Of a stretch of DNA of 64,000 nt, positions 19,751 to 23,131 are shown piece by piece (position 1 is the first letter of the stretch; each line of letters begins with the position of its first letter). A program made the position numbers and the translations under genes. The notes under the pieces are model-generated. The model saw nothing but the letters and a program-made list of their open reading frames with translations, was not told the DNA's origin and did no database searches. The stretch covers positions 1,886 to 65,885 of the forward strand of contig CACXXP010000008.1 of the NCBI GenBank assembly GCA_902771695.1, given 5' to 3'. Source of the DNA: an uncultured Pseudomonadota bacterium (GTDB lineage: Bacteria; Pseudomonadota; Alphaproteobacteria; Rs-D84).

Positions 19751-19859
19751 TAATAAAAAATGGTGAATATGACGCGAAAAATCGGGTGGTTATCCAGAAT
19801 AAGATAAGGGCAGAGAGAAGTTAAAGGAACCAAATAATATTACAAAAAAGGAGTAAATA

Positions 19860-20237
19860 ATGGCGAAGAAAAACAGCGGGAAAAAAATAGATGATGGGAA
19901 TCGGCAGATTAGTATTATAGCCGAATACGACCTGGGTAGAAATTCGAGAACCACTATTGCAAACAACTGCAATCCGGTCCTGGTTTGTAGTAATTGCGGT
20001 GTATCGCGTGAGGCATGCCCTCATTATGCAACGCTAAAAGGAATTGCGAAAAAGACCCCAGAGTATGTACGGTTTTTACAGAAAAATGCGATTGATAACA
20101 ATCGCATAATGGGGGTGCAACCTAACACACCATCTGCGGTGATTGAAGCAGTGACATCCGCATTAAATGCAGCCGAAAAATGCAAAAACGGTATCGTTAC
20201 ACTGAATATGAATAATATGACCGCATGTTGTCACTAA
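19860..20237 (+). CDS. Small Cys-motif protein 1 (125 aa)
   Basis: AAGGAG SD; NNCNPVLVCSNCGVSREACPHY cluster; ends ...TACCH. Confidence 0.55.
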   Translation: MAKKNSGKKIDDGNRQISIIAEYDLGRNSRTTIANNCNPVLVCSNCGVSREACPHYATLKGIAKKTPEYVRFLQKNAIDNNRIMGVQPNTPSAVIEAVTSALNAAEKCKNGIVTLNMNNMTACCH

Positions 20238-20328
20238 ACTTGTTAAAATCTTGGGCGAAATGCCCAAGGTGTTGCGTTTATTTATACTATCAGTTGCCGA
20301 CAATGTTACAAAATTTAATGACAACAAC

Positions 20329-20388
20329 ATGGTATCTTTCAAGGGAGCAGAGGTGGATTTAGAACAAAAGAAAGTAATTGTAAAATAA
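20329..20388 (+). pseudogene. Diverged duplicate of the last 20 codons of rimM (remnant 3' end)
   Basis: ATGGTATCTTTCAAGGGAGCAGAGGTGGAT...TAA versus rimM 19691-19750 ATGGTGTCTTTCAAGGGTGCAAAGGTTGAT...TAA. Same length, about three quarters identical. Encodes MVSFKGAEVDLEQKKVIVK versus MVSFKGAKVDMESKVIFVD. Confidence 0.65.
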
Positions 20389-20400
20389 AAAGGATAAACA

Positions 20401-20787
20401 ATGGGAAACGAAACGATAAGAGCAAGACAAGGTATTTATTCGGAAAAATTTGATTATAATGCCGAACAAACCGCCAATCACTGTAACGAACTTATTCCAC
20501 AATCGCAATGCCCTGCACTGCATACGAACAAAGAAGCTCATCCTCTGATTAAATTAAGCAGATGCGCCCAATGTCGTCACATATTGTATGCGTTTTGTGT
20601 AAATAAATTGGGACAAAAACGCGATAAAGAACACCCAGGACAAGTTATTCGCAGTGGTGTAGAAACACTGGCTGAACATCCACTAACCGCTGACGAAATT
20701 GGCGCATTACAGAAAAAGGTTAGCATGATATATAAATACAAAGACCAGAGTGTACAAACGGTTAAACAAAACGGTATTCAACACTAA
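20401..20787 (+). CDS. Small Cys-motif protein 2 (128 aa)
   Basis: AAAGGA SD; HCNELIPQSQCPALH...SRCAQCRH. Confidence 0.55.
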   Translation: MGNETIRARQGIYSEKFDYNAEQTANHCNELIPQSQCPALHTNKEAHPLIKLSRCAQCRHILYAFCVNKLGQKRDKEHPGQVIRSGVETLAEHPLTADEIGALQKKVSMIYKYKDQSVQTVKQNGIQH

Positions 20788-20813
20788 AAAGCCATGAAAT
20801 ATACGGTGCAAAT

Positions 20814-21125
20814 ATGAACGAACAATTTGTTGAAGATACAGATAATATTGAACCTGTATATCATGAACAAAAACTATTCTGTGTAAACAACCAAATGGTT
20901 ATTGATTGTGAATGTCCGGAACATCCAATCCGCTGTTATGCACGCAATATCGCGCGTAAGTTCTATAATCCGGAATTTTCCCACCAAGATGATAAAAAGG
21001 AATATGGAATATCACGCACAGATATCGTGACCATTAACATAAAAGGCACAGAAAAAGAAGTTGAAGGCGTTAGAAAGAATCTGAAAAAACTTTGTGAGAA
21101 ATGCAAAGAACGGGGAAGTAAATAA
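20814..21125 (+). CDS. Small Cys-motif protein 3 (103 aa)
   Basis: FCVNNQMVIDCECPEHPIRC ... KKLCEKCKERGSK. Confidence 0.55.
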   Translation: MNEQFVEDTDNIEPVYHEQKLFCVNNQMVIDCECPEHPIRCYARNIARKFYNPEFSHQDDKKEYGISRTDIVTINIKGTEKEVEGVRKNLKKLCEKCKERGSK

Positions 21126-21140
21126 CGCAAGGAAACAAAA

Positions 21141-21401
21141 ATGAGAATAATATACTTAAACAATGAACTGACACGTATAGAAGATGGATGCGGTTTACGT
21201 CCGTTCAAAAAGTGTCCGTTGCAGGTTTGGGCAATGGGGGAAAAATACACTGTACATCGTGAAACCACCTTTTTCCCATTACAAACAAAAATAACTATCG
21301 TTGGCATGATGGAATCAAATAAAGTGTCATTGGCTATTGCAAAAATATGTGATGGATGCTTTTTCGGTGCATGCCACGATATCAAAAGTCGTTCAAAATA
21401 A
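21141..21401 (+). CDS. Small Cys-motif protein 4 (86 aa)
   Basis: AAGGAA SD; GCGLRPFKKCPLQ ... KICDGCFFGACH. Confidence 0.55.
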   Translation: MRIIYLNNELTRIEDGCGLRPFKKCPLQVWAMGEKYTVHRETTFFPLQTKITIVGMMESNKVSLAIAKICDGCFFGACHDIKSRSK

Positions 21402-21417
21402 CAAAAAGGGGGATTAC

Positions 21418-21777
21418 ATGGCACAGAATCAAACAATTAAATTACAAAACAAATGCCCTTGCAAATTGTCAGATTGCCCCGTCTATCGTCAGATGCCGAC
21501 ACGGGTAAAGGCGACTGATTACAAAGTGTTTTTTGTTCAACAAACGGTTAATGATCGTTTCAAATTAGATCCACGATATGCTGTATTGGGTTTATTTAAT
21601 CCAAATACAGACAAAGAAAAAATTCGCGGCACAATTGAACAAATGGTAACAGTTTGTGAAGAATGCCGTAAAAACAAAGAAACCAAAATGCCGTCTTGCA
21701 TAACACTTAATTTGCGACCATTAAGCAGCGATGTGTTCACATACTGTGCAAATACCGTTAACAATCATGGCAAATAA
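21418..21777 (+). CDS. Small Cys-motif protein 5 (119 aa from MAQNQ)
   Basis: AAAGGGGGA SD before the ATG at 21418; NKCPCKLSDCPVY ... TVCEECRKNKE. Confidence 0.55.
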   Translation: MAQNQTIKLQNKCPCKLSDCPVYRQMPTRVKATDYKVFFVQQTVNDRFKLDPRYAVLGLFNPNTDKEKIRGTIEQMVTVCEECRKNKETKMPSCITLNLRPLSSDVFTYCANTVNNHGK

Positions 21778-21785
21778 AAGGAATT

Positions 21786-22280
21786 ATGATGAGTAAATTT
21801 GTTTTAGAATGTAACGAAGCAACGTTTAATACATTTAGTATTCCAGATGATATAGAAATTAAAAAGCGTGATGCGCTGCATCCGTTTAATGCACCATTTT
21901 ATAGCATAATAACAAATGGCGAAAATGTTTTGTCTGTATTGGACAAAATCAAGGCCCCAGAAATACTGCCTGGAACCAAACAGTTTTCTGTACCGGGCGT
22001 TGCGTCTATGCCCCCATTTTGCGTACATGATTGCAATGCGCCACTGAAAGAGTGTAAGATTATTGATTTTGCAATCAAAAACGACCTTGGGGTATACACT
22101 TATATTGATCAACGTCGGGCTGGTGCGAGTAATGTAAAATATTATGATTACAGCATCAATGTATCTACTTTGCGTGGCATCAAACCAAAAGAAACCAGCA
22201 AACATTTGTTACATTTATGTTATCAATGTGATTGTTGCCGCAAAAAATTGACAGAACAAACCAATCAACAAAGTATGTAA
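21786..22280 (+). CDS. Small Cys-motif protein 6 (164 aa)
   Basis: AAAGGAA SD; FCVHDCNAPLKEC ... HLCYQCDCCRKK. Confidence 0.55.
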   Translation: MMSKFVLECNEATFNTFSIPDDIEIKKRDALHPFNAPFYSIITNGENVLSVLDKIKAPEILPGTKQFSVPGVASMPPFCVHDCNAPLKECKIIDFAIKNDLGVYTYIDQRRAGASNVKYYDYSINVSTLRGIKPKETSKHLLHLCYQCDCCRKKLTEQTNQQSM

Positions 22281-22290
22281 GGAGAATATT

Positions 22291-22578
22291 ATGATTATGA
22301 GAGAATTTTATATCCGTTCCAAAGACACAGAATTAAACACAGAACCATGCAATCGCGAAGCCGATGCCACGATGATTTTTTGGAAAGAATGCGAGATAGA
22401 CCCAAAAAAATGTCCGACTATAGAATATTTCAAGGCACTGGGCGCGACACCTTATGCGTATAACCAACGTCATTGTTTCAACTTTGCCCCAAATGTCAAT
22501 ATAGACCTGTTGCGGAAATACGGCGAAGAATCAAAAAACATCTGTCTGTATTGTCAAGGCGGAACGAAACGCAGATAA
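22291..22578 (+). CDS. Small Cys-motif protein 7 (95 aa)
   Basis: AAGGAG SD; KECEIDPKKCPTIEY ... NICLYCQGGTKRR. Confidence 0.55.
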   Translation: MIMREFYIRSKDTELNTEPCNREADATMIFWKECEIDPKKCPTIEYFKALGATPYAYNQRHCFNFAPNVNIDLLRKYGEESKNICLYCQGGTKRR

Positions 22579-22593
22579 CAAAAGGAATATATC

Positions 22594-22770
22594 ATGAACC
22601 CATTTGAAGAAATTTATTATCCGATATTAAGTAAAAAGCCCGAACAACATCCAGAAATTGAAAAATGTCCAGCGGTATTGGCGGAACGCGAAGGAAAAAC
22701 CACCACAGAAATAATTGACGCATGCAGAAAGTGCTATGCTCAACTGATGCAACCAAAGAACAGTAAATAA
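22594..22770 (+). CDS. Small Cys-motif protein 8 (58 aa; below the ORF-track cutoff, translated by hand)
   Basis: AAAGGAA SD. MNPFEEIYYPILSKKPEQHPEIEKCPAVLAEREGKTTTEIIDACRKCYAQLMQPKNSK shows the same C-P ... CxxC layout. Confidence 0.45.
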   Translation: MNPFEEIYYPILSKKPEQHPEIEKCPAVLAEREGKTTTEIIDACRKCYAQLMQPKNSK

Positions 22771-22806
22771 AATATGTTATTGTTGTAAAAACAACCCAGG
22801 GAGATT

Positions 22807-23130
22807 ATGATGCCACAAAAGTATAGTTGTGTTCGTTTTGAAGACCCAGGCCCAGGTTTTTTGGTCGCATCATCATTACCAAAAGGCAAATGTCCCAAGG
22901 GGGTGACATTAGAACAATGCCCATTGTGCACAACGCTTAAACAAGATTCTGATTTCCATGTAGAAACAGGTCTTAGCCCCTACGGTGATCCCTGTGTCAT
23001 AGTACAAGTGCCAAAACATCGTGTACAAGGGCTTACCATAGTGGAACCCCATCCGATTTTATTGGGAACATATAAGAATATATACGAGGTCATATGTGTA
23101 AACTGTCAAAAACAATATGGTAGCAAATAA
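22807..23130 (+). CDS. Small Cys-motif protein 9 (107 aa)
   Basis: GGGAG SD; GKCPKGVTLEQCPLC ... VICVNCQKQYGSK; its stop lies 1 nt before the trmD ATG. Confidence 0.55.
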   Translation: MMPQKYSCVRFEDPGPGFLVASSLPKGKCPKGVTLEQCPLCTTLKQDSDFHVETGLSPYGDPCVIVQVPKHRVQGLTIVEPHPILLGTYKNIYEVICVNCQKQYGSK

Positions 23131-23131
23131 C

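Follow-up and report, generated by a model that had tools for sequence, protein, structure and literature searches.

A nine-gene array of small, mostly four-cysteine proteins in a probable lineage-specific accretion slot between rimM and trmD of an Enterousia-like alphaproteobacterium

The stretch of DNA analysed here (64 kb of contig CACXXP010000008.1, assembly GCA_902771695.1, called the window below) belongs to an uncultured Candidatus Enterousia-like alphaproteobacterium of the order Rs-D84; the relatives of its TrmD place it in or beside Candidatus Enterousia. In this window the rpsP-rimM-trmD-rplS operon carries an insert. The 3.38 kb between the rimM stop (19750) and the trmD ATG (23132) are filled by nine plus-strand open reading frames (ORFs), named o1 to o9, of 125, 128, 103, 86, 119, 164, 95, 58 and 107 amino acids (aa). 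After o2 the spacers measure only 8-36 nucleotides (nt), and the o9 stop lies 1 nt before the trmD ATG; positions, lengths and spacers are those given in an earlier note on this DNA. The G+C content of the insert is 0.36-0.39, slightly below that of the flanks (0.42-0.48). Taken as a whole, the best explanation, to which we give a probability of about 0.6, is a real small-gene array in a lineage-specific accretion slot of the operon, made up mostly of a new superfamily of proteins with four conserved cysteines (Cys4).

The array genes are listed below. Cluster numbers refer to the 44 BLASTP clusters into which the 124 small ORFs of this slot (related loci and window) fall, and the hold-out values to a profile hidden Markov model (HMM) that was built without the window sequences and anything BLAST-similar to them, and compared with 300 shuffles per ORF.

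19860..20237, plus strand: o1, 125 aa, divergent cysteine protein C43-x2-C46-x6-C53-P ... C108, apparently part of a later insertion
20401..20787, plus strand: o2, 128 aa, compact C28-x8-C37-P-x17-C55-x2-C58 with a C-terminal extension of about 70 aa
20814..21125, plus strand: o3, 103 aa, Cys4 member (hold-out 20.0 bits, 0/300 shuffles)
21141..21401, plus strand: o4, 86 aa, Cys4 member with C17, C25-P, C70 and C73, cluster 5 (hold-out 0/300)
21418..21777, plus strand: o5, 119 aa from the ATG behind AAAGGGGGA, Cys4 member, cluster 9, with a C-terminal extension past CxxC (hold-out 19.9 bits, 0/300)
21786..22280, plus strand: o6, 164 aa, Cys4 member lengthened by about 75 aa at the N-terminus, with an ortholog in the sister species L001 (hold-out 18.3 bits, 0/300)
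22291..22578, plus strand: o7, 95 aa, Cys4 member, cluster 6 (hold-out 19.9 bits, 0/300), dN/dS 0.08 against L001
22594..22770, plus strand: o8, 58 aa, short subfamily without the central hairpin, H-x5-C-P ... C-x2-C, BLAST cluster 2 (9 relatives)
22807..23130, plus strand: o9, 107 aa, Cys4 member (hold-out 13.4 bits, 0/300), swapped in some conspecific strains

Comparisons within and between species indicate that o1 to o9 are real genes, as the earlier note had supposed, and that they are under purifying selection. A purine-rich motif resembling a Shine-Dalgarno site (SD) stands at the proper distance before eight of the nine ORFs when judged by eye, in line with the claim that nearly every ORF has its own; across the related loci such a motif precedes 83 of the 124 slot ORFs, compared with 7.5% of random ATGs. 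The same array is kept on at least ten independent conspecific contigs from different samples. Exact copies of o1-o9 and of TrmD are present in public metagenome assemblies, where they are labelled as hypothetical proteins of an 'Alphaproteobacteria bacterium' metagenome-assembled genome (MAG), and the exact o4 protein was found on at least 21 contigs. The within-species ratio of non-synonymous to synonymous polymorphism (pN/pS) is 0 for o4 and o8, 0.09 for o3, 0.14 for o9, 0.20 for o6, 0.21 for o5, 0.49 for o7 and 0.63 for both o1 and o2, and 0-0.17 for the flanking genes; these ratios come from counts summed over related strains and are indicative only. In o4 no non-synonymous polymorphism was seen in 10 strains, and o8 likewise shows none.

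Selection among orthologs, which had been proposed as a check, was also purifying. Between the window and the sister species L001, TrmD is 94%, L19 99% and S16 97% identical, whereas the orthologs of o2, o5, o6 and o7 are only 44-59% identical, with non-synonymous divergence (dN) of 0.32-0.48 and synonymous divergence (dS) from high (1.0 for o2) to saturated. Where measurable, dN/dS is 0.08-0.38 (0.38 for o2, which is 47% identical to its ortholog), and dS in the flanks is 0.33-0.74. These contrasts in identity, dS and dN/dS imply that the interior evolves much faster than the flanks, or has a deeper history, yet is constrained. It should be noted that rimM itself behaves like the array: compared with L001:7052-7516 it shows 72% aa identity and a dS of 1.8, as against 94-99% identity and dS values of 0.33-0.74 for trmD, rplS and rpsP.

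Regarding the proteins, the earlier note had described by eye one shared architecture and a locally amplified, rapidly diverging paralog family. Pairwise BLASTP among the nine ORFs gives no significant similarity, and their homology is visible only through profiles from other genomes. The strict pattern C-x2-14-C...C-x-x-C near the C-terminus is nonetheless present in five of the nine window ORFs against 0.35 expected (none of 2000 shuffles reached five), and a loose form in seven of nine against 0.84 expected. An excess over composition-preserving shuffles, set as a test beforehand, was thus obtained. Over all 124 slot ORFs the strict pattern occurs in 81 (4.7 expected), and the CxxC is preceded by a hydrophobic residue in 82 (3 expected). 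A terminal Lys or Arg is found in 109, compared with 18 in shuffles. This terminal preference is partly genomic, because 43% of the long ORFs of these genomes end in the same way; terminal Arg, at 55% in slot ORFs, has a background of 9%. Genome-wide, a C-terminal Lys bias is apparent in all loci: 34% of 1,340 long ORFs end in Lys and 9% in Arg. A DNA-level motif as the cause of the terminal residue was ruled out, as the codons AAA, AAG, AGA, AGG and CGN are all used.

Alignments of profiles with hhalign linked the larger BLAST clusters over about 75 columns with P values from 1e-7 to 1e-4. Cluster 1 acts as a hub, linked to cluster 5 (o4; P = 1e-7), cluster 9 (o5; 3e-7), cluster 7 (4e-7) and cluster 6 (o7; 1e-6), and more weakly to clusters 10 and 3; cluster 2, which holds o8, is tied to the superfamily only weakly (P about 5e-3). 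The hold-out profile recognised o3, o4, o5, o6, o7 and o9 at 10.5-20 bits, a score reached by none of 300 shuffles of each, and did not distinguish o2 and o8 from shuffles; against the family profile o1 was marginal (4 of 300 shuffles reached its score). In alignments of 69 and 105 members with a mean identity of 9-12%, the four Cys columns are invariant in 103-105 of the 105 sequences, and the sole true exception is window o8, with His at ligand 1. The aligned cysteines, C-x5-9(14)-C(P) ... h-C-x-x-C with h a hydrophobic residue, are present in o3, o4, o5, o6, o7 and o9, and o1 carries a permuted 3+1 version. Members are about 70-165 aa long and basic, with a median pI of 9.0 and a Lys/Arg tail of net charge +2.8. 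Hence, o3-o7 and o9 appear to form one previously undescribed superfamily, which is statistically supported for these six, with o8 as a short relative and o1 and o2 as divergent Cys variants. The shared architecture stood for the six and failed for o1 and o2, to which the profiles are blind, with o8 as a weakly linked short subfamily; the paralog family likewise holds for most of the array (six of nine by the hold-out profile), but not by BLASTP among the nine alone.

Concerning the distribution of the array, the comparison set comprised 75 loci with both rimM and trmD, namely the window and 74 fetched relatives. The array had been presented as a peculiarity of one genome, which did not hold up: the slot is occupied in 68 of the 75 loci, and the window is the extreme case. 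The distance between the two genes ranges in the relatives from -2/+5 nt to 2.5 kb, compared with 3.4 kb in the window. Seven loci have no small plus-strand ORF in the gap, 36 have one, 21 have two, 6 have three and 3 have four, and the count reaches 7 in L001 and 9 in the window. The cluster 3 subfamily persists across many species. Two families unrelated to Cys4 also reside in the slot, both ending in Lys or Arg; they were noted in L039-L060 and L073-L079 (e.g. L049:9688-9993) and in L031, L034, L044 and L069. Cluster 0 (about 100 aa, CSCVYTCDQF.TYPVD..GRRIIP.DA.CP) is usually the last gene before trmD, and cluster 8 (about 48 aa) is Cys-free, with VIIVHPDQ.IVA.I.K.LEKTK.

The rpsP-rimM junction is a second variable slot, with a gap of 3-851 nt and 0-3 small ORFs, and holds the orfX family. 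In other species it houses a second four-Cys family, CPYDG..C ... CP.....C.RY with a basic tail ending in Lys or Arg (e.g. L008:9012-9260, L037:8803-9009 and L071:8471-9220), for which no Pfam match was obtained. In the window and all loci together (about 1.5 Mb, 2,674 small intergenic ORFs), a scan with the family HMM and the pattern gave 89 matching ORFs, 84 of them in the two operon slots. The other five were four spurious minus-strand ORFs and one real member, L013 15466-15726. This member heads a minus-strand block of four ORFs (L013:12582-15726; 305, 140, 255 and 325 aa) between rplS and the DUF2155 gene, for which no Pfam or PHROG annotation was found. In addition, the database member P0120, which comes from a more distant species and has other genes upstream, also lies between rimM and trmD.

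The earlier note had recognised no known family, and the searches agree with it. Nothing above threshold was obtained for the nine ORFs in Pfam, PHROGs, NCBIfam or PADLOC, and PDB sequence-profile searches with A1 and A3 gave nothing; the best PHROGs match, found for o9 only (E 0.0014), is a family of unknown function. A HMMER scan of 1.84 billion representative proteins returned 33 matches at E<=1e-3. All but one are 85-141 aa long, and the odd one is a 1458-aa repeat protein that is probably spurious; the 26 small new matches that were retrieved all carry the family motif. Word-indexed searches found only unnamed or 'hypothetical' alphaproteobacterial MAG proteins, and the broad profile of 105 sequences gave 11 matches, fewer than the first search. 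As for a phage origin, no tblastn match was found for o1 or o6 in 50,697 phage records, and no relative of o4 in IMG/VR. In the literature, no paper joining rimM, trmD and cysteine-rich proteins was found, and the array is not described in the literature on Enterousia and Rs-D84.

A fold was predicted for the family with AlphaFold2. The model of the member P0113, built from 29 sequences, has a mean predicted local distance difference test (pLDDT) score of 83.3, with a core above 90, and a beta-beta-alpha-beta-beta-alpha order. In this model strand 2 ends at the first Cys, helix 1 opens with the C-P, and the long last helix carries the CxxC at its C-terminal end; the four cysteines may cluster in space. 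Foldseek gave no significant match in the PDB or BFVD (none with E<0.05), and all matches are at chance level; the best template-modelling scores were 0.40-0.47 for subunits of the Rpb11/AC19 type and 0.42/0.57 for an S6 permutant, and type III secretion chaperones also appeared.

The four cysteines would bind one structural metal ion, probably Zn, and this ion would staple the C-terminal helix to the beta2-alpha1 loop of the predicted beta-beta-alpha-beta-beta-alpha domain. The o8 protein is informative here: its His19 occupies the position of the first Cys in its nine closest relatives (H-x5-C-P versus C-x5-C-P), and such a replacement would be expected at a metal ligand rather than in a disulfide. 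The split zinc knuckle or ribbon proposed before is therefore retained in part. A probable four-ligand site with contributions from both chain ends is kept, but the fold class is not, given that the first two cysteines are spaced as C-x5-9-C, the model puts the CxxC into a helix and no Zn-ribbon match was found. No TM (transmembrane) segment or signal-peptide-like N-terminus was seen in the nine ORFs (maximum Kyte-Doolittle 19-residue mean <=1.06, hydrophilic N-termini), which bears out the earlier statement; the proteins would accordingly act in the cytoplasm, as far as export signals can tell.

The remaining parts of the operon and the candidate expression signals are the following.

18403..18431, plus strand: promoter-like site TTGACT-17-CATAAT upstream of rpsP, candidate operon promoter (consensus scan only)
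18571..19023, plus strand: rpsP (S16) with an Ala/Glu/Pro-rich C-terminal extension (translation; Pfam Ribosomal_S16 on the identical gene of conspecific contigs)
19039..19296, plus strand: orfX, 85 aa, in the rpsP-rimM slot, overlapping the rimM start (called in all conspecific contigs)
19286..19750, plus strand: rimM (Pfam RimM), whose last ~60 nt (19689-19750) appear to be the replacement copy of a duplicated 3' end
20248..20270, plus strand: terminator-like stem-loop after o1 with a weak T tract (-15.3 kcal/mol)
20327..20398, plus strand: putative remnant of the ancestral 3' end of rimM, with 74% identity to 19689-19760, also in L001
23132..23821, plus strand: trmD (MHFNILT...), without its own SD, starting 1 nt past the o9 stop
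23818..24207, plus strand: rplS (L19), overlapping the trmD stop
24224..24249, plus strand: strong intrinsic-terminator-like hairpin of 11 pairs, then TTCTTTTT, a T tract; operon end

In the operon scan a strong terminator was found only after rplS. Across the related loci the slot spacers have a median of 15 nt, and the last slot stop usually lies within 8 nt of the trmD ATG, with 1 nt as the commonest distance; in the seven empty-slot species rimM abuts trmD in the same manner. Since a promoter-like site precedes rpsP, the terminator comes only after rplS, the spacers are tight and trmD lacks an SD, the array is likely expressed by read-through transcription from the rpsP promoter together with translational coupling. 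The view that trmD and rplS expression must pass through the array is upheld. In E. coli, C-terminal residues are established to affect translation termination, and the C-terminal Lys/Arg preference, common even to the unrelated slot families, may in part have been selected because it makes termination and re-initiation efficient. The orfX product has a pN/pS of 0.13, homologs in the same slot of many relatives, and no Pfam or NCBIfam match, and does not belong to the Cys4 family. The C-terminal extension of rpsP (18900-19020) is repetitive and shows a 12-nt length polymorphism among conspecific strains (blastn gaps).

The content of the slot changes in several ways. Adjacent paralogs of the same cluster in L037, L050 and L080 point to tandem duplication, and L024 and L029 have same-cluster pairs with one other slot gene in between. 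Genes are also reordered on the same strand, with o2-o7-o6-o5 in L001 and o2-...-o5-o6-o7 in the window. In the database protein P0143 the N-terminal ~62 residues of o3 are fused in frame to the C-terminus of o6 (20814-21000 joined to about 22170-22270), a chimera which suggests a strain carrying an in-frame deletion of o4, o5 and most of o6. Finally, alleles are replaced within the species: in L082 and L085, whose flanks are 98-99% identical, o9 is swapped for a 96-aa member of another subfamily related to L001:9712-9999. In the same two contigs (L082, 6454-6934) and in L087, which ends before o9, the C-terminus of o8 is lengthened from 58 to 62 aa.

The o1 segment appears to have a history of its own. 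The rimM 3' end (19689-19760) recurs as a direct repeat, the 72-nt copy at 20327-20398, with 74% identity and without an identical core. The rimM genes of the genus normally end in ..VK TAA, and the SD for the gene behind them comes immediately afterwards. The remnant, which lies inside a 42-codon ORF (20260-20388) ending in ..VIVK TAA AAAGGA directly before o2, matches this norm, so o2 probably used to follow rimM directly. In the window and in L001, on the other hand, the functional rimM ends atypically in ..VD (..VIFVD in the window). Before the split of the window and L001, a later insertion would have brought in the replacement rimM tail, a 109-nt spacer, o1 and the conserved hairpin at 20248-20270, whose equivalent in L001 has -16.1 kcal/mol (z -4.2). 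The only relative of o1, L001 7616-8035, is 27% identical and conserves CxxC-x6-C ... C, and the o1 type is limited to the clades of the window and L001. Among all loci, rimM-tail remnants were found only in these two clades (a match in L064 looks like chance). One-sided homologous recombination with an illegitimate second join may be the simplest reading of the insertion. No attC-like inverted repeats were found at the junctions, and no phage relatives in the searches.

As for the surroundings, the operon neighbours are PFK, S16, RimM, TrmD, L19, DUF2155, an AmiA-like protein and TsaD, and the Rfam scan of the whole window found only four tRNAs, none of them within the array. No integrase or other mobile-element gene was seen beside the array, which bears out the earlier remark that no integrase, transposase or phage gene accompanies it. 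The sole tyrosine recombinase of the window (41934-42845, minus strand, 304 aa, with Phage_integrase and SAM_1 domains) looks like a housekeeping XerC/D-type protein; it is 19 kb from the array and adjoins rpsD and SIMPL genes. An HNH endonuclease gene (196 aa) stands beside a tRNA gene (13620-13690 and 13898-14485, minus strand) some 5 kb upstream of the operon, with no further mobile-element signature near it. The 1018-aa protein encoded at 9144-12200 on the plus strand matches Pfam solely through an N-terminal Listeria-Bacteroides repeat, and it may sit on the surface of this partner-dependent bacterium.

The structural and evolutionary description is much firmer than the functional reading. 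Charge and conserved operon context suggest that the proteins act on RNA, the ribosome or its maturation machinery, a proposal that we hold tentatively and that falls somewhat short of an even bet. It is drawn from proteins that are basic, cytoplasmic and probably metal-stapled, encoded together with S16, RimM, TrmD and L19, and present in single copy in about half of the species. Several points weigh against the overall explanation or this function. The seven related species with an empty slot do without the genes. Moreover, empty slots, varying copy number and subfamily, and within-species allele swaps are easier to reconcile with a dispensable function of the conflict type than with a core role in the ribosome. 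Because unrelated families share the slot, the location may reflect just a convenient strong promoter, with no functional link to ribosomes or tRNA. The confident model is that of a relative outside the window and not of an array gene; the model of o4 itself, from a 19-sequence alignment, is poor (pLDDT 51.7). As to genome-wide exclusivity, the confinement scan covers +-10 kb per relative and the 64 kb of the window genome.

The genes could instead serve conflict or partner interaction, as immunity- or antitoxin-like binders, anti-phage factors or partner-directed effectors, with the slot as a constitutive parking place under diversifying or frequency-dependent selection. This is a serious rival, though less likely than not. 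It would account for the hypervariability between close species (44 clusters among 124 ORFs, copy number 0-9), the replacement of alleles within a species, orthologs far more diverged than the flanks with saturated dS, the unrelated families in the slot and the lower G+C of the insert. It would also suit the obligate symbiotic or parasitic life predicted for the lineage (PMC12306168). The positive C-terminal tails resemble the C-terminal signals of alphaproteobacterial type IV secretion substrates, but no signal peptide was found and the window encodes no secretion system. Nor was there any PADLOC match at E<=1 or a toxin-like partner gene in or near the array; the proteins are basic, and typical immunity proteins are acidic. 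Exactly one gene is kept in 36 of 75 species, subfamilies such as cluster 3 persist and purifying selection dominates, all of which weighs against such a function. A combined view, more speculative and rather improbable, sees the trmD operon of Rs-D84 bacteria as an integrase-free accretion platform, with a translationally coupled slot within essential genes, whose cargo is exchangeable, strain-specific accessory proteins, metal-stapled and basic, that bind the ribosome or maturation factors and possibly diversify under ribosome-targeting toxins or a partner.

Three other explanations are unlikely. The products could be largely irrelevant, with the ORFs kept either as translated spacers that lead ribosomes from rimM on to trmD and adjust trmD and rplS expression, or as hitch-hiking junk in a region whose deletion would harm essential genes. 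The stop 1-8 nt from the trmD ATG in most loci, the lack of an SD for trmD, and a C-terminal Lys/Arg common to unrelated families, which could constrain termination and re-initiation rather than the proteins, would agree with this. Against it stand four cysteines invariant in more than 100 sequences at about 9% identity, pN/pS well below 1 for most genes and the compact fold that is confidently predicted; in seven species trmD is coupled to rimM with nothing in between, which shows that a spacer is not required, and genomes below 1 Mb rarely retain 3.4 kb of junk (PMC12306168). We consider this improbable. Very unlikely are mobile cassettes, whether integron-like or the cargo of an integrative element targeting the rimM 3' end: the genes are promoterless, same-strand, tightly packed and shuffled in order between species, and the o1 segment came with a second rimM 3' end, as happens with integrative elements that insert in the 3' ends of genes. 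However, the spacers (median 15 nt) have no attC-like inverted repeats, no integrase is near (the XerC/D-like gene is 19 kb off), the rimM tail copies are 74% identical without an identical core and their remnants occur only in the window and L001 clades, and the phage and viral collections hold no relatives. Hardly credible are Cys-modified precursors of ribosomally synthesised and post-translationally modified peptides (RiPPs). Small, tandem, Cys-containing products with a variable body and conserved cysteines recall them, but there is no adjacent maturase (the radical-SAM gene at 49560-50795, 26 kb away, has a UPF0004 N-terminal domain) and no conserved leader, and proteins of 55-165 aa with a predicted globular fold are not leader-core peptides.

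The accretion slot with its Cys4 genes is of interest on several counts. Genomes of the order Rs-D84 are smaller than 1 Mb, and the Enterousia lineage is predicted to live as an obligate symbiont or parasite in the animal gut (PMC12306168; PMC13196213). A 3.4 kb insert stands out here, since dispensable DNA should disappear from reduced genomes and few gene orders in bacteria are as conserved as those of core ribosomal operons. The array would provide a new protein family with a simple metal-site hypothesis, and a natural example of genes that are born, expressed and exchanged without mobile-element machinery by way of the promoter and translational coupling of an essential operon. It also offers a handle on the biology of an uncultured, partner-dependent gut lineage of ruminants, horses and humans. 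Proteins that associate with the ribosome or are aimed at a partner would be lineage-specific factors of real interest; otherwise, the slot is a clean model of birth-and-death evolution of small proteins, a phenomenon confined to one uncultured lineage.

Small Cys4 proteins restricted to one lineage are a known kind, and so are variable islets flanked by conserved genes. What is new and unusual here is an undescribed family without a sequence or fold relative, and a variable multigene slot in the rpsP-rimM-trmD-rplS operon of a genome below 1 Mb. Among known proteins, Trm112 (PF03966) shares the small size, four cysteines from both chain ends (C-x4-C and C-x2-C in Trm112) and a variable central insert. 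It is also a partner protein of methyltransferases, and the slot genes lie directly upstream of a tRNA methyltransferase gene. TrmD, however, is a self-sufficient SPOUT dimer, there is no PF03966 match at E<=1, and Trm112 structures are absent from the listed top 50 Foldseek PDB matches; the slot family has its CxxC in the terminal helix followed by a basic tail, and an obligate subunit could not vary in copy number from 0 to 9. The Zn-binding ribosomal proteins (L31, L32, L33, L36, S14, S18) are likewise small and basic, with a four-ligand Cys site, and encoded with ribosomal genes, and a His-for-Cys swap at a ligand position is typical of Zn sites. Unlike a zinc ribbon or knuckle, the slot family has one CxxC knuckle and a C-x5-9-C-P pair, a different fold, and is hypervariable and dispensable; no Zn-ribbon HMM passes, the best being Zn_ribbon_5 on o2 (E 0.15, 12 bits against a 29-bit cutoff). 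A beta-alpha sandwich of the same kind as the family model is found in Rpb11/AC19, S6, type III secretion chaperones and YbjN, which lack the Cys4 staple. Metallothioneins were rejected, with Cys at only 4-6.5%, and so were WhiB-like proteins, whose Cys spacing and fold, as generally known, are different.

At the level of gene organisation, integron cassette arrays also consist of small promoterless genes in the same orientation behind one upstream promoter, with content and order varying among close relatives. The slot differs from them in having no intI, attI or attC, in its spacers of 1-36 nt, in its place inside an essential core operon, and in that most of its genes belong to one protein family and also duplicate in place. 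Capsule and O-antigen loci and orphan immunity-gene arrays are islets between core genes that are exchanged by homologous recombination. The slot resembles them in its conserved flanks, hypervariable interior, within-species allele swaps and deeper interior divergence, including dS. In contrast to these islets, it lies inside a ribosomal-protein and tRNA-modification operon and is read through for essential genes, and its cargo is mainly one lineage-specific Cys4 family instead of biosynthetic or known immunity genes.

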